A stretch of 64,000 bases of DNA from a virus: positions 1 through 64,000 of the IMG/VR virus record IMGVR_UViG_3300020599_000004; one strand, written 5' to 3'. Below the pieces are notes generated by a model, which saw only the letters and a list, made by a program, of their open reading frames with translations, was not told the origin of the DNA and did not search any database. This document shows positions 24,698 to 40,075 of the stretch, piece after piece. Positions within the stretch are counted from its first letter, which is position 1. Every line of letters begins with the position of its first letter. The translations under genes and the position numbers were made by a program.

Positions 24698-25381
24698 TTA
24701 TGCCAGAGTCCGACGGTTTTCAGGCTTCATGCCTTCATTCAGCATGGCCACCACTTTCGCAGCCGCTTCGGCTTTGGTGATCTTGCCGTCCTTGTTCAGG
24801 TCCAGGCCCTTGTTCTGAAGGTAAGCCTTGGTGCCCTCGGTAAAGAGGTTGTAGTCATCCGGTTTACCGACAGCAGCGGGCCAAAGTACTTTCATGTACA
24901 AGTCGCTGACGTTGGAGATCTTACCAGCCAGAGGCTTGAAGTACAGGTACACGTACTCCAATTGTTGCTCGGCGGTCATTTTCACAAGGGCGTCGATGGT
25001 GGTGCCGATGTCCTGAGCCGCTGCGGCACCGAACTGAATCAGGCCGTAATACGGAGCACCGGCGCCGTTCTTGATGGTGGGGGAGAAGGTACGACCGGTC
25101 TCAAAGGCCATGACGGACATCAGTTCCGACGCGGCGTTCGGGTAGGTCATCTTCAGGTCGGCTGCCATCTTTTTCACACGTGCCACGAAAGCAGGCGAAA
25201 CTTTGGCCGACCAGGCGATATCGAGATTATCCACGGAAGTGCTCCTGGATTGCTTGGCATCGGCCAGTGCAGCCTGCCAAGCGGAGTTGGACACATTGCC
25301 CCAGAGGCCATCTACGATGCCTTTATAGTAACCGGCATCCTTAAGGTCCTGTTGCAGTTTCATCAGGGTAGCGGTGCTCAT
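24698..25381 (-). CDS. modular endolysin (PG-binding domain + lysozyme/transglycosylase-like domain)
   Basis: LQQDLKDAGYYKGIVDGLWG PG_binding_1 motif; FETG..YGLIQF catalytic segment; DLNKDGKITKAE EF-hand-like motif. Confidence 0.85.
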   Translation of the reverse strand: MSTATLMKLQQDLKDAGYYKGIVDGLWGNVSNSAWQAALADAKQSRSTSVDNLDIAWSAKVSPAFVARVKKMAADLKMTYPNAASELMSVMAFETGRTFSPTIKNGAGAPYYGLIQFGAAAAQDIGTTIDALVKMTAEQQLEYVYLYFKPLAGKISNVSDLYMKVLWPAAVGKPDDYNLFTEGTKAYLQNKGLDLNKDGKITKAEAAAKVVAMLNEGMKPENRRTLA

Positions 25382-26115
25382 CAGCTGATCCCCAGTAGTT
25401 GTTTCGCCTCATCAATGCGATTAGCGAAGTCTTCCTTGGCTGCCATCACCATGCGCGTCCGATCAATGAAAGCCTGGTCGCTGTACAGGTACTGACCTTC
25501 GCTATACTTCCACTGAGAAAGGCGATTCTGGGAGGCATCCAGTTCGTAACCACGGTAGCGCAGTTGCTGAGAGACCAAGGCAGCTGGCTTACCGTCCGTG
25601 GAACGGAACAGGGTCAGATGACTCACATTATCCACGCCCAGCTGCCCCCCTGCACTGACCATCAGGGCGTCCTTGTAGGGCGAGAAGGCCGCGTACAGAT
25701 CTACCAGGGTATCGAGCTGGTTAGGGTCTTTCGACCTTACCTGGCCGATGAAGTTACTGATGCACAGCTGCTCCAGCATCCGCACGTTCATGCCTTCCGG
25801 CGTGGCCTGGAAGTAGTAGGTGGTAATCTTGGGTGCAACGGGGTTGACGTACTGGAAGTTGTCCTTGTAGTCGACCTCATTGACTGGCTGCTTACGGAAA
25901 GCCAGCACCTGATAACCGATAATGCAGTACTTGGAAACGCCCTGGAAGTTGTAAACCTCGATTCGGCTGATCCGACAGTAAACATCGTCGTCGACCAGAT
26001 CACCGAAGCCATCGGTGAACGTCAATCGGCGGGCGTAGAACAAACCCCGATCGAGGCCTTGGTAGTTCTCCGCAGCATCGGGCATGAAGGGTTTGCCCAC
26101 TTGTGGAAGTGACAT
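25381..26115 (-). CDS. hypothetical protein
   Basis: 244-aa ORF; its TGA overlaps the endolysin ATG (TGATG). Confidence 0.7.
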   Translation of the reverse strand: MSLPQVGKPFMPDAAENYQGLDRGLFYARRLTFTDGFGDLVDDDVYCRISRIEVYNFQGVSKYCIIGYQVLAFRKQPVNEVDYKDNFQYVNPVAPKITTYYFQATPEGMNVRMLEQLCISNFIGQVRSKDPNQLDTLVDLYAAFSPYKDALMVSAGGQLGVDNVSHLTLFRSTDGKPAALVSQQLRYRGYELDASQNRLSQWKYSEGQYLYSDQAFIDRTRMVMAAKEDFANRIDEAKQLLGIS

Positions 26116-26124
26116 GGTGACCCC

Positions 26125-26682
26125 TTATTTCTGGAGGATGTGGAAGTCGTTGATCAGGGACAGGCGCATCTCTTCCTTATCCGGCACCGTCTGCACGCTG
26201 TGCTGGATATAGGACGGGATGATCAGGACGTCACCGGCTCTGGGGCGGAAGTCGAAATTACCGAAGTACTCGTCGCGGATTTGCCGCGGGTAACCACGAC
26301 AGGCATTGCCACGCGGGTCGTAAGCAAGGAGCGTCGCGTTGGAGTCATGCGGGTAGAGGATGGTGGTGATAGACGAGTCGCCATGCCAATGGGCTCCGAG
26401 TTCTTGACCAGGTTTGAACCATTTGCCGAAGGTGTCGACCCGAAAGTCAGTCAACTCGAAACCCATGGCTGAAGCCATGAACTGTTTCACCAGGGGCGGC
26501 AGGATTTCATCACGCACTTGTTGCACGAGTGGCGTGGTGTCATCGACCTTGTGCGGTACACGGTCGTCATTGTGGGTAAGGCAGTGCAAAGCAATGACTT
26601 CAGAGGCCAGAGCCTCCAGATCGATCAGGTCCTTGACGTTAACCACTGCCAGGGAGGATTTCCACGGGGTGATGATTTGCAT
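26125..26682 (-). CDS. putative 2OG-Fe(II) oxygenase (PF13759/TIGR02466-like)
   Basis: AHWH..SITTILYP..DPR..PRAGDVLIIPSYIQHSV..R.SL pattern; start ATG 26682 or GTG 26694. Confidence 0.8.
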   Translation of the reverse strand: MQIITPWKSSLAVVNVKDLIDLEALASEVIALHCLTHNDDRVPHKVDDTTPLVQQVRDEILPPLVKQFMASAMGFELTDFRVDTFGKWFKPGQELGAHWHGDSSITTILYPHDSNATLLAYDPRGNACRGYPRQIRDEYFGNFDFRPRAGDVLIIPSYIQHSVQTVPDKEEMRLSLINDFHILQK

Positions 26683-26697
26683 GTTGAATCTCACTCA

Positions 26698-27261
26698 TTA
26701 AAGGTCGTGGCGCAGGTAGTACTCATGCAGCAGCGACAGCCGCACGTCTTCCTGCACGTAGGAAACGCTGTGTTGCAGATAGCTGGGGAAGATGTACAGC
26801 TCCCCTGCTTGAGGGGAGATGCTCACTGTTCCCATGAACTTGTTGCGAATCGGCTTCGGATAACCGCGCCCGGCATTGACCAGCGGACTGAAGAAGTTGA
26901 TCCCCGAGGGAGAGTCTCCCGGATAGAAAATCGCTGAGATACAGGAGCCGGGGTGATAGTGCGGGAACAGACCTTCGCCGGGCTGTATCCATTTGGCGTT
27001 GCACTCCACATCGATCTCAGGGATTTCATAACCCCACACGTCTTTGGCGTACTCCTGCACCGCCGGGGTGATGACGCTATTGCGCAGTCGCGTGATGGCA
27101 GGAACGAACTCTTCCCCTACGAACTGCTGGGCACCGTCTTCGTTGTTAGTCAACATGGACAGGTAGTGAATCTCTTCTGCGAGGTCGTGAAGACTGTACT
27201 CCCCACAATCTTGCACCTGTATTCGACCAATCTGTATCTTCCAGGGCTCGAGGTATTGCAC
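26698..27261 (-). CDS. putative 2OG-Fe(II) oxygenase (PF13759/TIGR02466-like)
   Basis: PHYH..CISAIFYP..PQAGELYIFPSYLQHSV..R.SL; paralogue of the adjacent gene. Confidence 0.8.
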   Translation of the reverse strand: MQYLEPWKIQIGRIQVQDCGEYSLHDLAEEIHYLSMLTNNEDGAQQFVGEEFVPAITRLRNSVITPAVQEYAKDVWGYEIPEIDVECNAKWIQPGEGLFPHYHPGSCISAIFYPGDSPSGINFFSPLVNAGRGYPKPIRNKFMGTVSISPQAGELYIFPSYLQHSVSYVQEDVRLSLLHEYYLRHDL

Positions 27262-27714
27262 TTAAGTGTTCTCCATCATCTTAAGAATGACATCTTGGAT
27301 ACCTTCTTCTGTGCACTCAAGGCGCCAGTACTCTGCTGTTTGAGGTGCCCACCCTTTATCGATCCAATCAGGGAGGTCGTCCAGCCGTTTCAGGATGGCG
27401 TTATAAGTGGCTGGATCAGCTTGGTAGGGCTTGAAGTACTGGTCATGTCCTAGAAACAAATCAGGATCACTTAGCGTTTCCAGAAGTGGAATGCCGTAAT
27501 GCTGTTCGTTTAAGGTGGCGTAGATAATGGCGACAGCGTAGCTCTTTGCCGGGTAGATCAACGGAAAGGTCGCTGCTTCGAAGTATTTCAGCGCATTCTC
27601 TACGAGCTCATCCTGGATAATGATCTCCATCTTGGAGAAATCATCGGGGTGATCCTGGACAAGGTCTTCGTAAAGACGCTGGTATTGCTTGTAGACAGGC
27701 TCACTCATCTTCAC
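27262..27714 (-). CDS. hypothetical protein in radical SAM cluster
   Basis: 150 aa; overlaps/abuts both neighbours; YPAKSYAVAIIYA segment. Confidence 0.7.
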   Translation of the reverse strand: MKMSEPVYKQYQRLYEDLVQDHPDDFSKMEIIIQDELVENALKYFEAATFPLIYPAKSYAVAIIYATLNEQHYGIPLLETLSDPDLFLGHDQYFKPYQADPATYNAILKRLDDLPDWIDKGWAPQTAEYWRLECTEEGIQDVILKMMENT

Positions 27715-28756
27715 GCACCGGATTTGTGATGGGAGTCAAGTCCCATCGGTTCTTCATGTCGAGCAGACACGTGTCCAGGCGGAGCGTGTCCATGATCAAC
27801 TGCGTATCGCCACGGGCGCAGTTGTCAAAGAAACAACATTCTCCACAATCGGGATGGTCAGCGTACACTTCCAAGTGTTTGTAGTACATCTGCTCCTTAA
27901 AGCTGATAAGCTCATCAGCATCCCAAGGGCGTGGGAACTTGAAAGGATCGATGAACATGGGAAACTTTTCCATGAGCACCGGGACGTAGTACAGTTCACC
28001 CTTGTGATAGGCGAACTCCAGGCTATCCGACACGGTAGGGATCAGGTAACGGTTGTACTGGGTGTCGTTACATTCTTTCATCCCGTCTGTGAATAGACGA
28101 AATTCCCGGAGGAACTTCTGTCGGATCATGATCTCTTCCAACCCAAGCCTGGAATGCGGGAAGTTGTACTCGACCAATTTAGGCACACCCAGGTCCAATT
28201 CATGGGCCAGGCGGTTGGTTTCCAGGTGGAAATCCTCCGCGGTGGCATTGGTCATGTTGATCCCCAAGTACAGAAGTTTGAACTCCGTCTCATGCAGATT
28301 GTCTCGGATGATTCCGATCCTTTCCCGCAGCATGTTGGTGAACTTCTCATTACGGATGTTCTTAAGTGTGGCTGGCACGATCAGGCGAAACTTCTTGCCT
28401 GCCATCAACTTGTCCACCTTCTGTGCAAAAGGCACTAAGTTGGTGTCGAACAACAGGGCGAGTGATACTGTCAGTGAATCATACCGAGCTGCCAACGCCT
28501 TGATCAGACTTCTATCCAGAATCCCCATCCCGGTCTTCGAGGAGATGATGTCTGTCGGACCGAGGGTGAACTCATGTAGGCGGAAACCGCGATCGCGCAT
28601 CGCATCCACCAACGCCAGGAGACGATCATCGTCTCCTGGGTGGATGAAGTCGCTGGTGAGGGTTTTGTCGATGGCGCAATCCTGACAACTGAACCCACAA
28701 CCTTTGAGAATCTCCAGCGTCAGGTTGAAGGCCTGATCCTTCTCATTCCCGAACAT
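27701..28756 (-). CDS. divergent radical SAM-like protein
   Basis: LEILKGCGFSCQDC (CxxxCxxC) near N-terminus; C-terminal CGECCFFDNC..C cluster. Confidence 0.7.
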   Translation of the reverse strand: MFGNEKDQAFNLTLEILKGCGFSCQDCAIDKTLTSDFIHPGDDDRLLALVDAMRDRGFRLHEFTLGPTDIISSKTGMGILDRSLIKALAARYDSLTVSLALLFDTNLVPFAQKVDKLMAGKKFRLIVPATLKNIRNEKFTNMLRERIGIIRDNLHETEFKLLYLGINMTNATAEDFHLETNRLAHELDLGVPKLVEYNFPHSRLGLEEIMIRQKFLREFRLFTDGMKECNDTQYNRYLIPTVSDSLEFAYHKGELYYVPVLMEKFPMFIDPFKFPRPWDADELISFKEQMYYKHLEVYADHPDCGECCFFDNCARGDTQLIMDTLRLDTCLLDMKNRWDLTPITNPVREDE

Positions 28757-29762
28757 GATCCAATCCCACCAAACAGTCGCGAATGCTCATCCGATGCATG
28801 ATACTGGTGATTCCTTTCTCACTGCAACTCCCCAGGTACGGACATTGCATGCACTGCGTATCCTTGAGGTAGTCCACAGAGCGCTCCAGAGCCTCGCTAC
28901 GCGCTTTTAGCAGCGATTGCATAGTCCAGGGGCGGGGAACAACGAAGTCGTCATCCAGGAAGGCGCAGTCGTCCTTAAGGAAGGGTACCCAGTAGAGGTT
29001 ACCGCCGGTGTACAGCAGGTTCATCATGGTTCCGGTGTCGTAATGCAGGTCAGGGTTCCTGCGACGCTCGTCATCGCCATCCAGATTCGAGTAGAACTGG
29101 GTGATGCGATGACTCATGCGTTTTATGCGCTCACCGAGCATGAGGTCCTTAACCGGAGCACGTCCATAGGGGATGTTCAGGATATCATCCTTGTCTACGG
29201 GGAACTCCACATCAAAGCCTTCACGCATCATGATGTCGAAATTCTCGTTTACCGTCTCATGTGTGCAGTTAACCACGAACCCTGCTTCGTTCAAGAAAGC
29301 GTCTTTCAAGTGCTCCTTCACGAAATTGAGCTTACGCACGATCATGTCAGAGAACTTGTGGTTCTTAAAGAAGTCAGGCGCTGCTGGCATAAGGAACCGG
29401 ATGGCTTTACCAGGTAGCGCGGCATCGATCTCTGCGCACATTTTGGCGTAGAGTGGCATCTTACGCTCCAGGAAGGCGGCATTGAACGTCACCTGATGGA
29501 AATGTTGCGCCATTTCCCGTACCACTGGGTTCTCCATCACCTCGGCGACATTGTCCGAGGACATGTAGTCAGTTGGGCCAATACCCAAGTCGAAGGCCAC
29601 ATAGCCTGCATCCATCATTTCTTGAATCAATGCGTAGAGCAGAGGGACGTCTTCGATCTCACCACCAAGCTCACGATCGATCATGCAGCCCGCACAGTGA
29701 TTTTTGCACCCTCTAAACAAATCGAGGGTTATCTCTAGCCGTTGACGATGACGAACTTTCAT
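28743..29762 (-). CDS. divergent radical SAM-like protein
   Basis: LDLFRGCKNHCAGC; C-terminal CMQCPYLGSC..C. Confidence 0.7.
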   Translation of the reverse strand: MKVRHRQRLEITLDLFRGCKNHCAGCMIDRELGGEIEDVPLLYALIQEMMDAGYVAFDLGIGPTDYMSSDNVAEVMENPVVREMAQHFHQVTFNAAFLERKMPLYAKMCAEIDAALPGKAIRFLMPAAPDFFKNHKFSDMIVRKLNFVKEHLKDAFLNEAGFVVNCTHETVNENFDIMMREGFDVEFPVDKDDILNIPYGRAPVKDLMLGERIKRMSHRITQFYSNLDGDDERRRNPDLHYDTGTMMNLLYTGGNLYWVPFLKDDCAFLDDDFVVPRPWTMQSLLKARSEALERSVDYLKDTQCMQCPYLGSCSEKGITSIMHRMSIRDCLVGLDHVRE

Positions 29763-30687
29763 CTTCGATCCACCTTACCAGCAGTCCATGGAAGCCGTTG
29801 CAGGAGTTCTCCAGGGATTTCACATCCCGAAGGTGCTCAGACAGGCAACGACCTTTGAATTCGCACGCACCGCAGAACGTGTTCGCCTCGACGCGCTGTC
29901 TTTCTTTTTCGCACCACGCCTCATAAGCCGCAACATTCTCCAAGGTCAGGAAGAATTCACGGTCATTAAGGTCAAATTCCAGTACAGCGAATTGACCTTG
30001 GGGGGTGATGTACAGATGATCATCGCTGTAGGCATTGCGCGTGCCTTCCACGGCTTTGATCACCTGAGATTCGTTCTCGAAATAGAACTTTCGTTCAGGG
30101 TGAGTGATCACTGCCCAGACGAAATCCTCGTATTCCTTAAACGTGACAGGCTGTTGGTTAGATTGGTTTTCCGAATAGGGCTTGATCTCCGCCGAATTCA
30201 GTTGACCTAGCATGTTCATCATGCTGACGTAGTCATCTGGCGTGACTTTGTCGAGGAATTCCCGACTGGCAAGAGTCAGGATGTTGTACCATCGAGGCAG
30301 AGTGAGCAGATTGTTGAAGACCAGCTCCCATTTCTCTCGTGCTGAGAAGTCAAACGACACCCCCAGTTCGAAATCCTCGTCGTCGGTGATCTCATTGGTG
30401 ACCGTGAGGTTGGTAATGAGCACCAAATCGGTAATCCCGTACTGGTGAAACATGGATTTCAGGGCCAGGAGGTACTTAGGGGGCAATAACAACACTTCCC
30501 CGCCGTAAATATCCACATGGGTGACGGTATAACCTGCGGCAATGACTTCCAATAACCTACGCTCAATCACTTCCAACGGCAATAGCTGTTTATCACTCAA
30601 TTGTTCGGGAGTGAGATAGCAAAAAGTGCATCTTAGGTTGCAATAGTACGTCGGGTTCAGACTAATGGTGAGCGGTTTCATACTCAA
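29713..30687 (-). CDS. radical SAM protein with partial SPASM-type Cys cluster
   Basis: LNPTYYCNLRCTFCY, IYGGEV; C-terminal CGACEFKGRC..C. Confidence 0.85.
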   Translation of the reverse strand: MSMKPLTISLNPTYYCNLRCTFCYLTPEQLSDKQLLPLEVIERRLLEVIAAGYTVTHVDIYGGEVLLLPPKYLLALKSMFHQYGITDLVLITNLTVTNEITDDEDFELGVSFDFSAREKWELVFNNLLTLPRWYNILTLASREFLDKVTPDDYVSMMNMLGQLNSAEIKPYSENQSNQQPVTFKEYEDFVWAVITHPERKFYFENESQVIKAVEGTRNAYSDDHLYITPQGQFAVLEFDLNDREFFLTLENVAAYEAWCEKERQRVEANTFCGACEFKGRCLSEHLRDVKSLENSCNGFHGLLVRWIEDESSSSSTARDNPRFV

Positions 30688-31778
30688 ACCCTAGCAATTA
30701 GCTGGACAGATTCATCCACATAGGGGGTAGGTTCGACCAAACCAGTCAAACCATTGATTTCGATGATGCGAGGAGCCAGGGATTTCATCTTCCGGCACTG
30801 ATGTTCGACCAATCCCATTTTTTTGGTGTCTGCAATGGTCTTCTTGCAGCCGTTGCAGATGGCAAACATCGGACATGTCCAGCACGCGTTCTTCATCGAC
30901 TGTAATTCGGGAGCGTTCTGCAATGGAGTGGCGATTTCGCCACGCATCTCCGCTTCGAAATCGATCCCGTACACCCGATCATCCCCGAATCCACCGCAGG
31001 AATAGTAACTCCCATCTGGTTGCAGGGTACGGATGTGACTATCGCAGTCACGGGAGAGTGGGCAGGTGGTATTGGCTTCCACCAAGCGACGCATCATCTG
31101 CTTGGTGTTGTATTCCCACTCGGCTAGCCCTGCATCGTAGATCTGGATGTAATGTTCGTAGATGTCGGCCTGGGTGAAGAATTTAGATTCAGCTCCCATT
31201 TCGACACCTCGCTTGACCACCGTGGGACCTGACGCCACCACGTGATTGATCTTTGCTTCCACACCCAGCCGTTTGGCTAATCTAACGGTGTCGAGGATGG
31301 TGTGTTCATTTTCCTTGTCGATAACAGCGATGAAGTCGGGTCTGTACCCTGCTACTTCATGGAGCAGTTCGGCACAGGCGAGGTAATCTTCCTCACTGAA
31401 GGGGGTTAGATCACCCTTAAGGCGTGCATTGCCGTACTGGAATGAAGTGGTAATGCCCACGCGGGGGTGTCTGAATAAATCCGCCCACATCTCGGGCTTC
31501 TTGTAGAAAGCCCAGAGATTTGTGGTGAAAGCCAGCGTAGCAGCGCAGTTGTGCTTCTCGAGGATGGCGATGATGTCCCAGTAATACTGGGGTGGCATCA
31601 TCAGTGGATCACCACCATTTAAGATAATGGTGCGGGTATCGGGGAAACGTTGGATGAAACGATCGACGTACTCCAGATCGAGTACGTCTTTAGGTTGCTC
31701 CGAAAGGACAGTACTGGAGCAGAACGTACAAGCAAACGAACACATGCTCGTGGGCTTCAGGATCAACGAATCAACCAT
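30684..31778 (-). CDS. radical SAM/SPASM protein
   Basis: ILKPTSMCSFACTFC, LNGGDPL; CPLSRDC..YSC..CWTCPMFAICNGC..C; GGAG RBS before ATG 31778. Confidence 0.88.
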   Translation of the reverse strand: MVDSLILKPTSMCSFACTFCSSTVLSEQPKDVLDLEYVDRFIQRFPDTRTIILNGGDPLMMPPQYYWDIIAILEKHNCAATLAFTTNLWAFYKKPEMWADLFRHPRVGITTSFQYGNARLKGDLTPFSEEDYLACAELLHEVAGYRPDFIAVIDKENEHTILDTVRLAKRLGVEAKINHVVASGPTVVKRGVEMGAESKFFTQADIYEHYIQIYDAGLAEWEYNTKQMMRRLVEANTTCPLSRDCDSHIRTLQPDGSYYSCGGFGDDRVYGIDFEAEMRGEIATPLQNAPELQSMKNACWTCPMFAICNGCKKTIADTKKMGLVEHQCRKMKSLAPRIIEINGLTGLVEPTPYVDESVQLIARV

Positions 31779-31857
31779 GGAAATAACTCCAGATAACACT
31801 GACCACGATCATCAGCCCAATGACTTTCCAATGTACTGTACGTTCTTTACTGCTCAT
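31771..31857 (-). CDS. 28-aa hydrophobic peptide (not in ORF track)
   Basis: GAGGAG RBS; MSSKERTVHWKVIGLMIVVSVIWSYFHG; stop overlaps the start of the next rSAM gene. Confidence 0.55.
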   Translation of the reverse strand: MSSKERTVHWKVIGLMIVVSVIWSYFHG

Positions 31858-31858
31858 G

Positions 31859-32029
31859 TCACTCTCCTCGCGGTCGATGCTCCCGTTTGAGTTGGTTGGC
31901 TAACTCAACGAGTACGTTACCATTGATGAATCTGGAAGCGGTTTCGGCTCTTTTCTGGTGGCCATTGTCTTCCAGCCATTTCTTAGCGGCAGCGTACCCA
32001 TCAGGGGTTAAAGGAAATACCTGATCCAT
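31859..32029 (-). CDS. small hypothetical protein
   Basis: MDQVFPLTPDGYAAAKKWLE..; 56 aa packed between neighbours. Confidence 0.5.
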   Translation of the reverse strand: MDQVFPLTPDGYAAAKKWLEDNGHQKRAETASRFINGNVLVELANQLKREHRPRGE

Positions 32030-32039
32030 GGCGAGCTTC

Positions 32040-32276
32040 CTAGACGTTATGGCCAAAGGGCCTCTGCCCCATGATTTCCAGAGGACTCGCCCAGAACGGG
32101 TAAGAGCCATCGGCCTTTGTTGAGAGCTTATACGCCTGTTCTTGCCCTGGCTTGTGTTCGATCACGTACAGCTTCTGACCGGGTCTTGCGTGCAGGAACG
32201 CCGGGTGGTCTCCTGTCGCTGCGGTGATCAATTCTTTCGTTGCCCAGACCTCTTGACCTATTTCGTAAAGAGCCAT
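32040..32276 (-). CDS. small hypothetical protein
   Basis: 78 aa; AAGGGGAG RBS. Confidence 0.65.
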   Translation of the reverse strand: MALYEIGQEVWATKELITAATGDHPAFLHARPGQKLYVIEHKPGQEQAYKLSTKADGSYPFWASPLEIMGQRPFGHNV

Positions 32277-32290
32277 GTTACTCCCCTTCT

Positions 32291-32332
32291 GACATAAAAG
32301 GTTGCCGGGGGTAAAGACCCCCGGCTTATGTC
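32291..32332. terminator. GACATAA-hairpin-TTATGTC element inside radical SAM cluster
   Basis: GCCGGGGGT/ACCCCCGGC stem flanked by GACATAA and TTATGTC. Confidence 0.7.
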
Positions 32333-32334
32333 CC

Positions 32335-33354
32335 CTAATCCTGCTTGACGATACGGTCGAACATCTCTTTTATCCGGCAGTCGCTGCTTAAACCATCGGC
32401 AATGAAGCTGTGATGGAGGAAGCAGCGCAGTCCGCACCGCCCGTAGTACTCACACGCTAGGCAGTTATATTTTTCAATGAATGCCATCTCTGCCTTAGCC
32501 TTGGCCGCCAACCCTTCTGCCTCATCAAGGATGGCGTTCTTCCCTGCCTCAGACCAACAGGTCGACACGATATTGTCCTTGTTGACAATCTTCGTGGAGC
32601 GACAGGTGGTCTCGTTGAACAGGTTTTCACGCCAATCCCTGACAGGCAGGGAGTTGGGGTATTTCTCATTCAGTAACAGGTAGAGGTCACTGATCATGTC
32701 CTCGTCCGGCTGAATGTACTCGTACATCGTGGAGGGGATGTAGTGGTCAAAGTACACAGTGAAGTTCTCGCACATCCACTGCATCTCTTTACCTTCCTTC
32801 CCCTCCAGGAAGGACTGGATGTTCTGCTTGGTGATCACGACGTTGACCGTGTCGATGTAGTTCTGCAACAGATGGAGATTGCGCAGGAACATCTGACGGT
32901 TGTTTTTATCGAATCGACCCGCAGGGTCGTACGAGGTAGCCAGATCAATGATACGGCCTGGGGCGTACTCTCGCAGCAATGCAATCAGACGCATAACCCG
33001 GTTGATGTTCTCGTACGCAAGGTTGGTACCCCACACGAGTTTGACCTCGGTGAAGTGATCCAACACACGTTTACCGGCTTCCAGGTAATGGTCGAACATC
33101 CCATCTGGGATATCGTCACTGAAGAGTTCACCGCCGGTGAAGTTCACTACGTACGGCAAGTCTCCTGGGGTTGAGTCCGTCAGTCGCTTTACCTTGAGCA
33201 GGATTTCCTCACCGGACATCCCCACACGGGAATCGTGGTCCTGATGACAGAACGAGCAGCTCATGTTACACTTCTCGAACAGGATCAGGTGGGCTTCCTT
33301 GTACTTGCCCTTCTTCTGGGCCAGGATATCTACCACGGGAATGAGATCTACCAC
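32335..33354 (-). CDS. radical SAM/SPASM-like protein
   Basis: LILFEKCNMSCSFCHQ, FTGGELF; C..C..CLACEYYGRCGLRC..C; GGAGGAG RBS before GTG. Confidence 0.85.
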   Translation of the reverse strand: MVDLIPVVDILAQKKGKYKEAHLILFEKCNMSCSFCHQDHDSRVGMSGEEILLKVKRLTDSTPGDLPYVVNFTGGELFSDDIPDGMFDHYLEAGKRVLDHFTEVKLVWGTNLAYENINRVMRLIALLREYAPGRIIDLATSYDPAGRFDKNNRQMFLRNLHLLQNYIDTVNVVITKQNIQSFLEGKEGKEMQWMCENFTVYFDHYIPSTMYEYIQPDEDMISDLYLLLNEKYPNSLPVRDWRENLFNETTCRSTKIVNKDNIVSTCWSEAGKNAILDEAEGLAAKAKAEMAFIEKYNCLACEYYGRCGLRCFLHHSFIADGLSSDCRIKEMFDRIVKQD

Positions 33355-34409
33355 GTCGACTCCTCCATCAGGTGCTTGAGTTCTTCTTCGTCTGCTCGCA
33401 AGGCGTAACGAATCAGGTTCTCGTCGTACTTGATGGCGTCCATGTGACCCAGCCGGAAACCGTCTTTGCCGTTATCGAAGATGAACCGCAGACGTTTCAG
33501 GCAGAGTTCAGGATCAGTCAAGTCGTCCGTGGATTCAAAGCAGGTCAACAGGTTACGGTTACGTTTCGCCGCGGGCTGATCCCCGCAGTCATCCAAAACC
33601 TTGATGATGCTCTTGACCAGATCGATCATCCACTCGTCTGGCATCTCATATTGGAGTACGTTGGGCAGACGCAACATGGGGTCCGTAAGGTGTCCCAGGT
33701 TCTGGCAGGCCTCAAAGGTGCTAGGCATGTCCAGCAGGGCGTCTAAATTGACGCCTGAGAGGTGCCAACGGGTATCGTCCATGATGACCCGCCCCCAATC
33801 GTCCATCGCGTCATGCGTGTTATTGAGGGCCGTACGGCGTTGCAGGTTCAGTAGGGTGTCAGGGATACTTCCCACAACGCCAAATGCCCGCAGTCGCATG
33901 ATCCGCCATTCCAGGGAAACCTCTTCAGGAGATTCCTCGTAGAGCTTGCGCAGAACAGGGATAATCGGCTCGTCAAAGGCATAAAGGCGCTCGACCACTT
34001 CACGCGTAATCGTCACATCGCGGGTATGGTCCGTGCGATTGTCATGAAGATTAATCGTGCTGGTGTCAAATGTCGCCTTGGCGCAAATGAAGAAGTACTT
34101 GAAATGCTCGTAGTCGATGCCAGGGAACAGGGCCTTTACCATGGCGGCAAAGAGCCGGGTGTAGGTGTCGTCATCAGCATAAATGAAAGTCTTCTGACCG
34201 AATGCAATGGCTCGGTCTATGGCATCACCAAATTCTTTCGGTGACATGGCATCCAGGCTGGTCGCATAACCCGCCTGGAAACCACGGACTCTCACCAGCG
34301 GGTGGTCCACATGTTGGAACCCGCTGTGCTTACTGATGTTGATCTGTGCAACTTCCACCTTGTTCCTGAACTCGGCTTCGACGTAGGTCTTACCGAAGAG
34401 ATGGAACAT
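33348..34409 (-). CDS. hypothetical protein in radical SAM cluster
   Basis: 353 aa; overlaps both neighbours. Confidence 0.75.
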   Translation of the reverse strand: MFHLFGKTYVEAEFRNKVEVAQINISKHSGFQHVDHPLVRVRGFQAGYATSLDAMSPKEFGDAIDRAIAFGQKTFIYADDDTYTRLFAAMVKALFPGIDYEHFKYFFICAKATFDTSTINLHDNRTDHTRDVTITREVVERLYAFDEPIIPVLRKLYEESPEEVSLEWRIMRLRAFGVVGSIPDTLLNLQRRTALNNTHDAMDDWGRVIMDDTRWHLSGVNLDALLDMPSTFEACQNLGHLTDPMLRLPNVLQYEMPDEWMIDLVKSIIKVLDDCGDQPAAKRNRNLLTCFESTDDLTDPELCLKRLRFIFDNGKDGFRLGHMDAIKYDENLIRYALRADEEELKHLMEESTW

Positions 34410-35133
34410 TCAGGCTCCCTGCGATCTGGTCGTATCGACTGTTGTCGGCAGCTGCCGCGGCCAGGAACTGCTGCATGGCTTCTTCCCCTTCCATGGCGAT
34501 GAGGCTACCGATGAACAGGGGATTCTCCTTGACAGCAAAGTAGTAGAACAGGTTCTTGCCCGCGAAGATGTACTTGTTGAAGAGCACCTCGTTGTACGAG
34601 TACTCCTCCGGTCGTACGTCTTCCACCAGCAACGCGAAGAACGGATGCTTGATCAGGTTGACGTAGTTCAGTCCTGCCACACTGATGTTCTCGTCCGCGG
34701 GCAGAGCCTGGACGACTTCATCGAATTCACCCGTGGCATACAGGGCAAATAACGGCAGGTTGCGGATACGCTTCATCCAGGTGTCGAGGATGTCACGGTT
34801 TTCTGCAATGAACTCCGTCGGATCGAACGACAGCAGGGAAGGCTTACCCTGCATGTGCAGCAGGATCTGGACCACCGCATCGTCCAGATCCGGTGCCGTA
34901 GCGATCTGGGGCAGGTGCAGGTAATCCTTTACCAACGGCAGAGCGTCTTCGATGCTCTCCAGGTGCAGGCGGCACTTGATGTCCAAATTGGTCAGGTAGA
35001 CCAGCAGGGACTTGTTACGGAACTTGCTGTTCTTGTAGTCGATGACGAACTGGATGTCTTCTTTCTGTTTACGCACCAGGTCTTGCAGCGGAATCGGCGT
35101 AGTGGTAAACAGTACGGTGGTTTCAGTGTTCAT
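34390..35133 (-). CDS. hypothetical protein in radical SAM cluster
   Basis: 247 aa; AAGGGG RBS, 10 nt after the Cys/His-tail gene. Confidence 0.75.
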   Translation of the reverse strand: MNTETTVLFTTTPIPLQDLVRKQKEDIQFVIDYKNSKFRNKSLLVYLTNLDIKCRLHLESIEDALPLVKDYLHLPQIATAPDLDDAVVQILLHMQGKPSLLSFDPTEFIAENRDILDTWMKRIRNLPLFALYATGEFDEVVQALPADENISVAGLNYVNLIKHPFFALLVEDVRPEEYSYNEVLFNKYIFAGKNLFYYFAVKENPLFIGSLIAMEGEEAMQQFLAAAAADNSRYDQIAGSLNVPSLR

Positions 35134-35143
35134 GGTACACCCC

Positions 35144-35716
35144 TTAGCGACGACCGCGGTTACCGTGGCAGTTGTTGTGGCAGCTGTAGTGGCACACGGT
35201 GTTGGTCAGTGTGCCCACCACTGGACCACCCGCCAGGCTCCACCAGCGGTTGTACATGTTGTTGCAGAGATTGGAGACGTCAGCCTGCTCGACCGAGGTA
35301 CCTGCTGGGATCGCGCCCACCAGGGTGCCTGTGCCACCCACACCCGAGGAGAAGTAACCGATGGCATTGCCGTCGTATTGCGTAGTCGTCCAGGGTGCGG
35401 TGTTGTTGACGTTCTGCACAGGTGGGTTGTAGCCGTTGCCGTTGAAGTAGATCACGATGCGTTTGCGGCACAATACGCCAGAAATCGAGGCCACATACGA
35501 GACCGTATCGTTCACGGCTTGGGCACGGATGCTACCATTGCACCAATCCTGACCGGTGTGGGCACGTCCCAGCGGATTCGGGACATTACCGCCGAACCAA
35601 CCCGGCAGAGACCCACTGGGGTAGTTGTTAGCCCCCCAGGCTACCTGCGCGTTGATCTTGTCAATCAGGAGGCCGTTGAGCAGGTTTACGGCATCCACTT
35701 TACTGATGTTGGCCAT
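35144..35716 (-). CDS. N/G/T-rich protein with C-terminal (CHxx)3-RGRR tail; candidate radical SAM substrate/virion protein
   Basis: ends TVCHYSCHNNCHGNRGRR; starts 3 nt after a rSAM/SPASM gene. Confidence 0.8.
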   Translation of the reverse strand: MANISKVDAVNLLNGLLIDKINAQVAWGANNYPSGSLPGWFGGNVPNPLGRAHTGQDWCNGSIRAQAVNDTVSYVASISGVLCRKRIVIYFNGNGYNPPVQNVNNTAPWTTTQYDGNAIGYFSSGVGGTGTLVGAIPAGTSVEQADVSNLCNNMYNRWWSLAGGPVVGTLTNTVCHYSCHNNCHGNRGRR

Positions 35717-35719
35717 ATG

Positions 35720-36754
35720 CTACACCTTGATAATCAAATTTGACTGGGCGCTGCGTCCCGAGAGATACCGAAGGGTATTCTTAAGTCCACCACACCGTCC
35801 GTTCTGCCAGGGTAACCGATGGCAGTCTCCACCACAAAGGTCAAAGACATCGCAATGTAAACAACCTGGCTTAAAGTTCAGCTCACAGGCGATCTCATTG
35901 ATGCGACCATCGGACGCCAGAAACTCCAGAGCCCCCTGGGACAAGTGGGCGTGCTTGTGTTCTGTCGCCATGTTAGGGCAACCACCTAACCAACCGTTGG
36001 AGTTGATCGTCACCAGGTTCTGCTCACAATTGCGGCAGTTGGTGTCGACTTTGACGATACCCAGTTCCAACTTCTGCTTGATGGTGTCTAACGTAGTGAT
36101 CTTGTAATTGGGCTGACGCTCGAAGTACCGCTTGTACAAGGCCAGATACCAGTCGTCTTGCTCTACGTTGTCCGGAAAGACGTCTGGGTTGCACTCGGCG
36201 TTGCCTCCTAAGGTAAGGCGCTCCAGCGCCACCTCATCGATCTCCAGTTGGTCCAGTTGGTCTAAGAACCAGTCTGGTGTGGAAGCCACTAGAGGTCGAG
36301 AAACAGATACCTTCAGGTGGATCGTAACCCCAGCACGTTTGAGCATGCCAAGGTTACGTTTCCACAGATCGACTTGTTTTTGGTTGGACCATCTGATCCA
36401 AGGGTCCCAACTGGTCCCGATGTGACCATCGAAATGAACCAGGATGGTGTCGATAATGGCATCAGTCAACTTGAATGTTAAGTTACTGTTGGCACACATG
36501 GAAACATTCGGGTTGCTCGCAAAGTGATCGATGAAGGCGTTGATCTTGGCGAGCGGTACCAGAAAAGGCTCACCCCCGTGAAACTCAATGTGGTATTGCT
36601 CATCTTCGGGGTATTGGGCCATAAAGTCTTTGACCCAGGAAGCCGTTGCCTCCGGGTCGAATTGGGTCTTATCCCCCTGCTTGCCATTGGTGAAGCAATG
36701 GTCACAGTTCAGGTTGCAAGTGCCCGTGGTCTTAACGTAGATCGTCTTCATCAA
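35720..36754 (-). CDS. radical SAM/SPASM maturase
   Basis: YVKTTGTCNLNCDHCF, FHGGEPFL; CRNC..GGCPN..CLHCDVFDLCGGDC..C full SPASM-like set. Confidence 0.9.
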   Translation of the reverse strand: MMKTIYVKTTGTCNLNCDHCFTNGKQGDKTQFDPEATASWVKDFMAQYPEDEQYHIEFHGGEPFLVPLAKINAFIDHFASNPNVSMCANSNLTFKLTDAIIDTILVHFDGHIGTSWDPWIRWSNQKQVDLWKRNLGMLKRAGVTIHLKVSVSRPLVASTPDWFLDQLDQLEIDEVALERLTLGGNAECNPDVFPDNVEQDDWYLALYKRYFERQPNYKITTLDTIKQKLELGIVKVDTNCRNCEQNLVTINSNGWLGGCPNMATEHKHAHLSQGALEFLASDGRINEIACELNFKPGCLHCDVFDLCGGDCHRLPWQNGRCGGLKNTLRYLSGRSAQSNLIIKV

Positions 36755-37275
36755 AGCTTGTCCACGATGAACTTCTCCAGACCGAAGGAGATCATCAGGG
36801 AATCCTCGTGGTTTATCGCCTGGTGCTTCGTGTTGGCCGGGATGAAGAGGGATTCGCCGGGCTTGAGGGTGTATTCACCGTCAAGGGTTCTGAAGGTCTT
36901 GTTGCCCTTCACCATCAAGACCAGGACATCGTCCGGGTCGGTGTGCATCGGGAAGGACAAGGATTCTGCGGGTGAGATGAACAGATGGGCGGTCACCGGA
37001 CCATCGTGTTCAAAGTAATGCTTCAGGAATTCGCAGCATGCGTACAATTCTGCGGAGAGTTTCTCGTAATGCTCGATCTTGATGGGGCAGTCGATGTGAG
37101 CAATCACATCGGAGCAGCTATGGGCTGTTTCACACCCTGCTTCTCCGAGGACGATCTTGACCATGCCTTCTTCGTAGGCATAGAGACTCTCCAGTACCTG
37201 ACGGTGGTGCATCTGCGCCTCAGTCAAGTGAAAGTTGGCAAAGTCTTGATGCTTTCTCACAGCACTGCGGTCCAT
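36751..37275 (-). CDS. JmjC/cupin_4-type Fe(II)/2OG oxygenase
   Basis: AHLFISP..SFPMHTDPDDVLVLMVKGNK..LKPGESLFIPANTKHQA (HxD..K..H); GGAG RBS before ATG 37275. Confidence 0.82.
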   Translation of the reverse strand: MDRSAVRKHQDFANFHLTEAQMHHRQVLESLYAYEEGMVKIVLGEAGCETAHSCSDVIAHIDCPIKIEHYEKLSAELYACCEFLKHYFEHDGPVTAHLFISPAESLSFPMHTDPDDVLVLMVKGNKTFRTLDGEYTLKPGESLFIPANTKHQAINHEDSLMISFGLEKFIVDKL

Positions 37276-37367
37276 TTCCTGTCTCCAAAAGTAGGGGTAG
37301 GCCACATCAATGACCTACCCCTTACTTTCTTACTGCCTATGCCCAGTTCCCTAGCAATAAAAAATTG

Positions 37368-38291
37368 TCAGATAAAGTCCTTAGCCCTACGGCGAGCCGT
37401 GGATGCACTGATACCCAATGCTTCAGCTGCTGCACTCGCATGACTGTACGTCACCCCATCGATCACCAGAGGTTTTCTACTCCTGGCTATCGCCGCATCG
37501 ATCTTACCTCGCACACTGGCCTTATAGTCAGGGTCTGCCCACTTAGCCCGCATGGCTGCCCCATGCCGTTCTCTAAACCCCTCTATCTCCCATGTGGCAG
37601 CACCAGATTTCTTCTGGTTGGCAGCATACTCAGGATCTTCCCAGAGCCTCTTGGTGGCGCTGGATAACTTCTTCAGATACTCAGGGTCAGCTGCCAAGCG
37701 TTTCCCAGTTTCGACCCGTCGGGCTTTCACCGCAGGATCGGCGTAGATGTCCTTGATTTTGGATCGGAAGTCAGGGTCCTGCCATTGCGCCTTAGCTGCA
37801 TCGCTCAGCTTCTTACGGGTGTCTTCGTGAGCAGGGCGATACTCCTCGACCATGTGCCGCTGATTTACGCAGTAGGGGTCATTAAACAGCAGATCAACCA
37901 ATCGCTGCTCGACGGTCCTGGCTTCGCCTTCAGTGTTAGTGAAGAGGTAGATCACATCCGGCAACGCCCGTCTGCGGTCATACTCGCACTGGAGTTTCTG
38001 GTTGTAATGCTTGTTGGCCTTTAAGAAGTAAAGGTGCGTACGAGATCGTACCTGTAGGTAATAAGTGCTGCCGATGTAGAACTTACCACTGTTCCTGAAA
38101 TAGAGCACGTAAACCCCACATCGATCACCGGAGTACCTAATTCCACTGAGAGCAGGTCCCACTCCAGCAAACGCCTCAGGGTAGTTACAGTACTCCTCGA
38201 TCTCGTCATCCACCCAGCACCACAGCAGCCGGTGGAACCCGGCTGCTGTCCATTGCTTCAGATTTTCACCGCAATGCATCAGTTCTAACAT
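37368..38291 (-). mobile_element. free-standing GIY-YIG homing endonuclease with NUMOD3-like repeats and C-terminal HTH
   Basis: GVYVLY..KFYIGST..R..H; repeated W.DP.[FY] helices; KPLVIDGVTY..A..ALGIS. Confidence 0.85.
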
Positions 38292-39938: not shown

Positions 39939-40075
39939 AGAGTAAGGATAAGGGCTCTTTTGCCCTTATCCTTACTCTTCCTTATTCTTCTTTTCTCCTT
40001 AGGTAGGTTTATCTACCTAAGGGTACTGGGAATGATCGACACGGCTAGGTCCGCAGAGACCTAGCCGTTTATGCC
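39939..40075. terminator. cluster of three hairpins in intergenic region
   Basis: 17-bp IR 39939-39978; 8-bp IR 39999-40020; 11-bp IR 40041-40068 with TTATGCC. Confidence 0.6.

Follow-up and report, generated by a model that had tools for sequence, protein, structure and literature searches.

A widespread radical SAM enzyme cassette of jumbo phages and Bdellovibrionota that probably modifies the Cys/His tail of a small particle protein

In the HXS defence, HxsB and HxsC, a pair of radical S-adenosylmethionine (rSAM) enzymes, together with the small protein HxsD, mature the HxS-repeat protein HxsA, with a shift of +8 Da on the motif SHRSS, and the matured HxsA acts in the periplasm, where it bars the entry of phage DNA (Li et al., Nat Commun 2026, PMC13128918). 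By its logic, HXS is the closest characterized analogue of a gene cassette that we describe here in a 64,000-nucleotide stretch of viral DNA (positions 1 to 64,000 of the IMG/VR virus record IMGVR_UViG_3300020599_000004; hereafter the window), the whole record being 127.8 kb long and an estimated 47% complete. The cassette occupies a chain of co-oriented, mostly overlapping or abutting minus-strand genes running from 37305 to 24698 in the list of open reading frames (ORFs); an earlier note on this DNA had described such a chain at 25381-37275. It encodes putative rSAM enzymes (rSAM1 to rSAM6), putative iron oxygenases, and a 190-residue protein with the C-terminal Cys/His repeat CHYSCHNNCHGNRGRR (the CH-tail protein), which the same note had picked out correctly. 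We regard the cassette as a widespread but unstudied enzyme kit that probably modifies this tail chemically; a literature search found no paper giving it a function, and genome papers merely list rSAM, cupin, and oxygenase genes. We favor, with somewhat better than even confidence, the reading that the cassette encodes a maturation pathway, with the tail as its substrate and a structural or "attack" protein as its product.

The resemblance to HXS extends to several features. In both, a folded protein rather than a short peptide bears short, basic, His-containing repeats, more than one rSAM enzyme is accompanied by small helper proteins, and His and Ser occur together, as in the modified SHRSS motif; the HxsA product also works at the cell envelope in the contest between phage and host. 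Membership nevertheless failed on every feature tested. The CH-tail protein did not match the HxsA model (TIGR03976-03979 set), and the enzyme models reached 27.2 bits against a cut-off of 370 (HxsB) and 13-21 bits against 268 (HxsC). The repeat of the CH tail is four residues long, contains an invariant Cys, lies at the C-terminus, and ends in RGRR, His-x-Ser occurring only inside C-H-x-S. No peptidoglycan-binding domain like that of the HxsA-family effector was detected in the CH-tail protein, nor was an obvious signal peptide seen. Finally, the cassette has four to six rSAMs and a cupin, and its bearer is the attacker (phage or predator), whereas HXS belongs to the defender.

Other maturation systems share narrower sets of features with the cassette. 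anSME, the anaerobic sulfatase-maturating enzyme (PDB 4K36-4K39), could be aligned with rSAM3 over the whole length (rSAM3 profile versus 4K36, E = 8e-6, a distant relation) and has the same layout of Cys for twin auxiliary clusters; it also acts on Cys/Ser in a full-length protein. Cys and Arg of the last CH-tail repeat, C-H-x-x-R, are spaced as in the sulfatase motif C-x-P-x-R, but the Pro is missing, the anSME model TIGR03942 gave 37-40 bits against a cut-off of 349, and the window's cassette contains no sulfatase gene. QhpD, an rSAM/SPASM enzyme, installs several Cys-based crosslinks in QhpC, the small gamma subunit of quinohemoprotein amine dehydrogenase. Its substrate subunit stays part of a larger assembly, and TIGR03906 was among the weak matches of rSAM1; the score was 25 bits against a cut-off of 453, however, and there is no dehydrogenase context. 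For ranthipeptide, sactipeptide, and CXXX-repeat systems (PapB, CteB, TIGR04114/04115), the likeness is a Cys at every fourth residue of the tail, and PapB was the best NCBIfam match of rSAM1 (aligned over residues 5-313). That match amounted to 51 bits against a cut-off of 340, and the tail has only three Cys, no Asp/Glu acceptor pattern, and no RRE was found (RRE, recognition element of peptides made by the ribosome and modified after translation, or RiPPs). In the triceptide systems (three-residue cyclophanes, with a C-C link from the aromatic ring to C-beta of residue +2; rSAM/SPASM maturases, among them the His-linking HtkB and HaaB), HtkB makes a link from His-C2 to Lys-Cβ (PMC11499958), and their aromatic-x-x motif is present in the CH tail as His-x-Ser/Asn. 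YhhB, FxsB, AmcB, and GrrM are among the best matches of rSAM1 and rSAM4, and the tail His is sometimes replaced by Tyr, yet the scores lie 10-fold below the cut-offs (YhhB, 50.2 versus 445 bits; FxsB, 41 versus 370; AmcB, 37 versus 425), the CH-tail protein is a 190-residue virion protein with no detectable leader or RRE, and its invariant Cys have no counterpart there. RiPP systems in general differ in that their carrier is a short precursor with an RRE-bound leader and a leader protease, not a folded 190-residue protein.

The CH-tail protein consists of an alpha/beta body (residues 1-174) and the tail (residues 175-190, nt 35147-35194). In the AlphaFold2 (AF2) model (predicted local distance difference test, pLDDT, 77 overall), the body is moderately confident and the tail, with values <50, is predicted to be disordered. 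Positional equivalents are at most ∼30% identical to the window's protein in the body, and their C-termini read ...CHTSCHTSCHSARGRR in pPa_SNUABM_DT01, ...CHSSCHTSCHGSRGRR in RSL2, and ...CHSSCHASCHNSRSRR in Atu_ph07. Across 17 database homologues, T171-H176, C179, H180, C183, H184, and R187-R190 were invariant, so that the sole long invariant stretch is T-N-T-V-C-H..C-H..C-H..R-G-R-R at the extreme C-terminus. An exhaustive profile search extended the family to 541 clusters at 50% identity, with the tail as the best-conserved part. The strict (CH..)3-R.RR end was present in 139 of 162 family sequences examined; the others had two or four CH units, a His-to-Tyr change in the last unit, or another terminus, and H-to-N as well as H-to-Y replacements were found in otherwise intact tails. 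The logo of 52 unique tails was [V/I]-C-H-[A/S/T]-S-C-H-x-[S/N]-C-H-[G/S/N]-[S/A]-R-G-R-R, which generalizes to [V/I]-(C-H-x-S/N)x3-R-G-R-R, that is, H-x-S/N three times, with Ser or Asn at position +2 in most of the tails. Judged from these sequences, the spacing of the Cys would fit thioether systems, and the occasional Tyr in place of His would fit an aromatic crosslink donor. Fold searches with the model (Foldseek PDB and VIA wide) returned nothing above noise (best Z 4.7), a BFVD search returned only the protein's own family and weak matches to 500-660-residue proteins of one uncultured myovirus, and there was no NCBIfam match at E ≤ 1. A complex prediction for rSAM1, the CH-tail protein, SAM, and three 4Fe-4S clusters scored 0.01, a "no answer" that we count neither way. 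Two tandem CH-tail proteins were seen in the phage or metagenome-assembled genome loci L074, L078, L090, L093, L101, L107, and L122 (locus and genome handles are ours); those of L078, L101, L107, and L122 are short forms of 125-140 residues.

The tail protein and the enzymes travel together. The conserved core has the order cupin, rSAM1, CH-tail, 247-residue protein, rSAM2, rSAM3, rSAM4, 150-residue protein, and is common to phiKZ-like phages (pPa_SNUABM_DT01, RSL2) and the unrelated 470-490-kb phages Atu_ph07 and Phosso; cultured phages of Pseudomonas, Ralstonia, Burkholderia, Agrobacterium, and Sinorhizobium carry the cassette. When 80 IMG/VR loci were fetched around rSAM3, a same-strand ORF ending CH..CH..CH..R.RR lay 3-8 kb upstream of that gene in 62, and most of the loci without such a strict-tail ORF are cut off upstream. 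Among metagenomic loci with both rSAM1 and the 247-residue gene, a CH-repeat C-terminus was present in 63 of 64; rSAM homologues occurring apart from the Cys/His protein, which the earlier note had named as evidence that would speak against its proposal, are thus essentially absent. Of the non-enzyme partners of the rSAM set, the CH-tail protein alone is constant. The notion of one enzyme per residue (three Cys plus three His equals six rSAMs) was discarded: three units are also the number in phages with four rSAMs, and two-unit or four-unit tails stand beside six rSAMs.

The cassette is not confined to phages, as the earlier note had supposed. When one genome of each prokaryotic species was scanned with a degenerate DNA pattern encoding (Cys-His-x-x)3-Arg-Gly-Arg-Arg-stop, 34 genome matches appeared against ∼0.01 expected (an estimate from base frequencies). 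All 34 were flanked by cassette genes, and 23 came from Bdellovibrionota assemblies; a previous protein-pattern scan of bacterial genomes (TNTVCH...) had found none because that pattern was too narrow. Many of the pattern-matching contigs could be misbinned phages, but three are not: examination of the flanks placed three Bdellovibrionota loci among ordinary chromosomal genes, with no phage DNA-metabolism genes in the flanks examined. In two Bacteriovoracaceae genomes (G001 and G002; contigs of 2.84 and 2.45 Mb) syntenic bacterial genes border the cassette on both sides, the flanks of both including YebC, a DinG-like helicase, matrixin peptidases, and signal peptidase II, and the annotated flanks of the first additionally transporters and lysyl-tRNA synthetase. 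In a Pseudobdellovibrio genome (G003) it lies between PilQ/PilM (type IV pilus) and CarB, LepA, and MurC/MurD, a few kb from the pilM-pilQ genes. A protein with a type IV prepilin N-methylation motif and a Peptidase_S74 (endosialidase/fibre chaperone) domain adjoins the G003 cassette (L135, 12597-13643), and a similar protein lies ∼13 kb from that of G001 (L130, 17468-18586). No obvious signal peptide was seen in the bacterial CH-tail proteins. We considered a 2355-residue protein with Big_2 and RCC1 repeats inside the G001 cassette (L129, 12866-19933) as a conserved partner and rejected it as an insertion, missing from the syntenic locus of the sister genome G002. That predatory Bdellovibrionota have this kit as well suggests that it serves more generally in attacks on Gram-negative cells from outside.

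The location of the tail protein is known for one cultured phage. Electrospray ionization tandem mass spectrometry of Atu_ph07 virions detected the CH-tail homologue gp170 (296 residues, 31.89 kDa) with eight unique peptides and 35% coverage, whereas none of the enzymes and helpers gp165-169, gp171, and gp172 was detected, and the "structural cluster CDS 170-215" (CDS, coding sequences) of the same paper begins at the gp170 gene (PMC6102473, Table S5). This shows that the CH-tail homologue is a particle protein and that the cassette enzymes are not. The earlier note had proposed either a virion or fibre component or a released peptide as the product; gp170 bears out the former, and the latter is unlikely because the carrier is a folded 190-residue protein and the cassette has no protease.

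A related alternative, which we consider improbable, is that the tail is a sacrificial precursor from which the crosslinked C-terminus is excised as a small cofactor or diffusible peptide, the 190-residue body serving as a large leader. PQQ (pyrroloquinoline quinone) derives in this way from PqqA and mycofactocin from MftA, and the C-terminal position of the core in MftA matches that of the CH repeat; the many tailoring enzymes, including oxygenases, and an RGRR end that could be a processing site would suit excision equally. The carrier is, on the other hand, well folded and recovered from virions with the coverage given above, tandem duplicated carriers keep whole bodies, and the cassette contains neither a protease nor a transporter.

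Under the favored maturation pathway, rSAM1-4 would act on the CH tail as non-redundant enzymes of the SPASM or partial-SPASM kind, with the JmjC/cupin iron enzyme and the 247- and 150-residue helpers working beside them, and the window's clade would add two rSAM-like proteins, two PF13759 iron enzymes, and a 353-residue protein. The rSAMs would abstract hydrogen atoms and so bring about covalent changes in the tail, for which the candidates are three-residue cyclophane links from His to the C-beta of Ser or Asn, Cys thioether links, or anSME-type oxidation of Cys/Ser; tailoring by the oxygenases would follow the rSAM step. The enzymes would stay in the cell and the matured protein would enter the particle near the fibre or baseplate, its modified, basic Cys/His end acting at the host envelope, where it might bind, hold metal, or crosslink covalently.

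The gel behavior of gp170 bears on this proposal. The protein was present in bands 1-9 and peaked in band 1, the top of the gel, for which the listed proteins are of 87-127 kDa; in that table the peak lay in bands 7-8 for ten further proteins of 29-34 kDa, and in band 11 for gp42 (PMC6102473). The band-1 signal hints at a very stable or covalent high-mass form. Several observations weigh against enzymatic modification of the tail. The loading buffer, as described, contained no reductant (PMC6102473), and the high-mass gp170 could therefore be disulfide-linked. Profile scans of the cassette detected no RRE and no protease. Cys and His are classic metal ligands, and conservation of the tail alone is therefore no proof of modification. 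The number of CH units (2-4) does not follow the number of rSAM genes, and loci L038 and L087 carry the enzymes with no tail ORF in the DNA fetched. Moreover, rSAM5 and rSAM6 appear from their sequences to be only motif-level members, not demonstrably radical SAM enzymes.

In a rival explanation, to which we assign a minor though appreciable share of the probability, the tail would be a metal- or iron-sulfur-binding module (a metalloprotein or a scaffold, such as a trimer with axial Cys3/His3 sites) and the enzymes would act on something else, such as a fibre protein, glycan, lipid, or small molecule. Its canonical Cys/His ligands, spaced at i, i+4, and i+8, would fall on one face of a helix; no RRE was found; and an SDS-stable (sodium dodecyl sulfate) high-mass gp170 could equally be a disulfide- or metal-stabilized oligomer. 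Several findings stand against such a module. Disorder is predicted for the tail, some otherwise intact tails have Tyr or Asn in place of His, and among non-enzyme genes only that of the CH-tail protein accompanies the enzymes in both phages and bacteria, where the fibre neighbors differ or are absent; four conserved SPASM-type enzymes would be left with no other conserved candidate target.

The enzymes themselves point to peptide or protein chemistry. CxxxCxxC is N-terminal in all six rSAM proteins and invariant in the three orthologue alignments made. Toward the C-terminus, the Cys of rSAM1 are spaced as in a complete SPASM domain (C-x2-C-x15-C ... C-x2-C-x5-C-x3-C ... C), and these eight, like eleven Cys in total, are invariant among 32 orthologues; in rSAM3 the spacing is C-x5-C-x15-C ... 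C-x2-C-x5-C-x2-C ... C (invariant in 12 orthologues), in rSAM2 the cluster is SPASM-like, and in rSAM4, rSAM5, and rSAM6 it is only C-x2-C-x5-C ... C (partial SPASM). The PF04055 gathering score of 29.5 bits was exceeded by rSAM3 and rSAM4 (Table 1); rSAM1 (25.8) and rSAM2 (21.6) remained below it, rSAM1 passing Fer4_12 (25.3 versus a cut-off of 22). The SPASM model TIGR04085 (cut-off 27) stayed below threshold for rSAM3 (22.5) and rSAM1 (23.1 bits) and was not listed for the other four (for rSAM4, among the best 25 of 49 families). The best NCBIfam matches of rSAM1 were PapB, YhhB, FxsB, anSME, AmcB, and DynA, all far below cut-offs. Since the scores of all rSAMs lie far below the equivalog cut-offs, these proteins represent new families of the peptide- or protein-maturase kind. 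A maximum-likelihood (ML) tree of 111 sequences resolved rSAM1-4 as four orthogroups with one member per locus (1:1; SH-like approximate likelihood ratio test, SH-aLRT, 100 for rSAM2 and 96 for rSAM4), and rSAM5 and rSAM6 as a divergent fifth clade with 0 to 4 copies per locus. The best-conserved cassette gene is rSAM3, with >1390 homologues, mostly on contigs of 200-380 kb, and 365 IMG/VR contigs.

The fifth clade requires a separate description. PF04055 did not match rSAM5 or rSAM6, and 9 of 30 clade members touched it weakly (best E 4.4e-5). An hhalign comparison of the clade with rSAM1 was not significant (probability 1.4%), a PDB profile search gave no tie to rSAM folds, and rSAM5 had no Pfam or PDB match. 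Invariant Cys of the clade are C19, C23, C26, C303, C306, C312, and C329 (rSAM6 numbering), and rSAM6 is ∼25% identical to rSAM5 orthologues. Of the six rSAM proteins counted in the earlier note, all have the motif and the C-terminal Cys clusters, and profile support covers four, being good for rSAM3 and rSAM4 and borderline for rSAM1 and rSAM2. Its description of a unit of six rSAMs and three oxygenases holds for the four core rSAMs; rSAM5/6, the PF13759 pair, and the 353-residue protein are clade-specific accessories, as is the 244-residue protein.

With best similarities to PapB, YhhB/FxsB/AmcB, DynA, and anSME, the rSAM enzymes resemble peptide and protein maturases rather than nucleotide enzymes, and profile scans of the cassette detected no RRE/PqqD, protease, transporter, or nucleotide-pathway gene; on both the maturase type and the lack of DNA-modification partners the earlier note was right. 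A role in modifying the nucleic acid of the phage, or in boosting host metabolism or DNA repair, as earlier genome papers suggested for these rSAM genes, is in our estimate very unlikely. The paper on pPa_SNUABM_DT01 did propose DNA repair or metabolic boosting, and some phage rSAM enzymes act in thymidine hypermodification (PMC8989533); against this stand not only the similarity to maturases and the want of nucleotide-pathway partners but also the tight linkage to the CH-tail protein and structural genes, and the occurrence of the cassette in bacterial chromosomes with no phage DNA-metabolism genes in the examined flanks.

The cupin surpassed the cut-off of JmjC_2 (PF08007; 40.3 versus 22 bits), matched Cupin_2 (PF07883; 38.5 bits), and has the metal-ligand motifs HTD and a distal KHQ His (HxD...H), in agreement with the single JmjC/cupin oxygenase named earlier; DT01, RSL2, Atu_ph07, Phosso, and most IMG/VR loci have an orthologue. 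The two supposed PF13759-type 2-oxoglutarate (2OG)-Fe(II) oxygenases were supported by the profile (2OG-FeII_Oxy_5, cut-off 27 bits; 31.7 for 26125-26694 and 42.5 for 26698-27261) but not by the classical triad: the family (window 26125-27261; loci L011-L090) conserves HxH...H, with three His, instead of HxD/E...H. Dependence of the pair on 2OG is not established because of this motif, and these proteins may use cofactors differently from classical 2OG oxygenases. For one of them, a halogenase-like HxG site was suspected at first and dropped once the family motif proved to be HxH...H. Neither Atu_ph07 nor Phosso has the pair. Among the remaining proteins, the 247-residue protein gave a confident AF2 model (pLDDT 88), with no PDB match and nothing above noise in fold searches (best Z 4.5). 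The 353-residue protein had no family or ESM Atlas match, the 150-residue protein yielded no usable ESM Atlas lead, and the 244-residue protein had no family match. A flavodoxin-like structural match (template modeling, TM, score 0.33) from the ESM Atlas searches with the 353- and 150-residue proteins rests on a poor model and is not evidence.

A bolder form of the maturation pathway, which we offer tentatively and hold to be distinctly less likely than the pathway as such, is that jumbo phages and predatory Bdellovibrionota share a dedicated rSAM pathway forging a covalently crosslinked, basic Cys/His "warhead" on a small structural protein with which they attack Gram-negative cells from outside. 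This warhead might serve to fix a part of the fibre or baseplate by a covalent bond, to carry a redox-active metal, or to hold the DNA or entry channel open in the periplasm; on the attackers' side, it could be a counterpart, or a mimic, of the HxS-repeat effector with which bacteria block the entry of phage DNA. The known substrates of RiPP-type radical enzymes are so far, to our knowledge, small peptides and a few proteins of cells; virion proteins would be added to them if enzymes do crosslink the tail. Were the warhead proposal true, no radical crosslink installed by an enzyme would have been described in a virus particle before. The cassette is common (365 IMG/VR contigs with rSAM3, 541 CH-tail clusters, and cultured phages) and therefore marks a sizeable blind spot in phage annotation, in which the present interpretation of its genes is "DNA repair or metabolism". 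The finding of the cassette in predatory bacteria points to a step, as yet unexplored, that phages and predators share in breaching Gram-negative envelopes, and offers tractable laboratory systems. The four orthogroups and very divergent fifth clade of its enzymes form a pool of new rSAM chemistry.

Table 1. Features of the cassette and its surroundings (window coordinates unless a locus is named)
Feature	Position	Strand	Remarks
Tail-fibre/virion structural gene, 963 residues	40077..42968	-	PHROG virion-structural/tail-fibre families
Tail-fibre/virion structural gene, 482 residues	38363..39811	-	PHROG virion-structural/tail-fibre families
GIY-YIG/I-TevI-like homing endonuclease	37368..38291	-	between 482-residue fibre gene and cupin; insertion
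Cupin/JmjC-type Fe oxygenase, core gene 1	36751..37305	-	PF08007, PF07883; ATG at 37275 (earlier note) is an alternative start
rSAM1, core	35720..36754	-	CxxxCxxC (CNLNCDHC), full SPASM Cys pattern; stop 3 nt before CH-tail gene start
CH-tail protein, 190 residues, putative substrate	35144..35716	-	C-terminal end CHYSCHNNCHGNRGRR
247-residue protein, core (phrog_20767)	34390..35133	-	orthologues in every lineage including Atu_ph07, Phosso, Bdellovibrionota
353-residue protein, accessory	33348..34409	-	found only in window's clade and a few other loci
rSAM2, core	32335..33354	-	CxxxCxxC (CNMSCSFC), SPASM-like C-terminus
Two small overlapping ORFs (83 and 78 residues)	31859..32276	-	not conserved with cassette
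rSAM3, anSME-like, core	30684..31799	-	CxxxCxxC (CSFACTFC), PF04055 53.0 bits
rSAM4, core	29713..30687	-	CxxxCxxC (CNLRCTFC), PF04055 41.3 bits, partial C-terminal Cys cluster
rSAM5, accessory, divergent fifth clade	28743..29762	-	CxxxCxxC (CKNHCAGC), motif only
rSAM6, accessory, rSAM5 paralogue	27701..28756	-	CxxxCxxC (CGFSCQDC)
150-residue protein, core (phrog_20737)	27262..27714	-	kept in phiKZ-like phages, Atu_ph07, Phosso, Bdellovibrionota loci
PF13759 Fe oxygenase-like pair, tandem, accessory	26698..27261 and 26125..26694	-	PF13759 profile, HxH...H motifs
244-residue protein, clade-specific	25381..26115	-	relatives only DT01-type, 27% identity
Peptidoglycan-hydrolase/baseplate-hub-like protein, chain end in window's clade	24698..25381	-	phrog_4928, phrog_196 "baseplate hub"
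Dihydrofolate reductase insert	L007 (RSL2) 19042-19578; L009 (SURPRISE13) 19406-20583

The closest cultured relative of the window is the Pseudomonas jumbo phage pPa_SNUABM_DT01 (265 kb), with identical gene order. The PHROG matches of the two upstream genes agree with the tail-fibre context noted earlier, and the DT01 homologue of the protein at the far end of the chain is annotated as a transglycosylase. The GIY-YIG endonuclease is missing at its position in DT01 and in the metagenomic relative L006. Between the 963- and 482-residue fibre genes lies a perfect 17-bp hairpin (39939-39978) followed by a minus-strand T-run, likely a transcription terminator, and the 482-residue gene and the cassette may therefore form their own unit. 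A second GC-rich hairpin (32304-32325) follows rSAM2, ahead of the two small ORFs, homologues of which are present in few loci only (78-residue ORF versus phrog_21763, E 6.6e-5).

The equivalent place behind the fibre genes (annotated YomR) is taken in the phiKZ-like Ralstonia phages RP12 and RP31 by a different rSAM set, made up of a 537-residue rSAM, an "arylsulfatase regulator", and MoaA-like and MgoB-like proteins; the RP31 virion list contains none of the four annotated enzymes ORF72, 73, 75, and 76 (PMC5468394). This set did not match rSAM1 or rSAM3 of the window.

Near-identical phage DNA was present in soil and wastewater metagenomes from independent studies. Two soil metatranscriptome runs yielded short contigs that match stretches of the cassette with full identity, the CH-tail gene among them; as DNA carry-over is possible, we take them as weak RNA evidence by which transcription is not proven, and expression cannot be ranked from contigs. 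In a wastewater strain of 2025, the cassette differs at few sites, and a 1.56-kb stretch of the 963-residue fibre gene (40969-42529) has diverged at the same length and looks like a hypervariable receptor-binding part. Absent from the window, one or two dihydrofolate reductase genes lie between rSAM2 and rSAM3 in Ralstonia and Burkholderia phages (Table 1).

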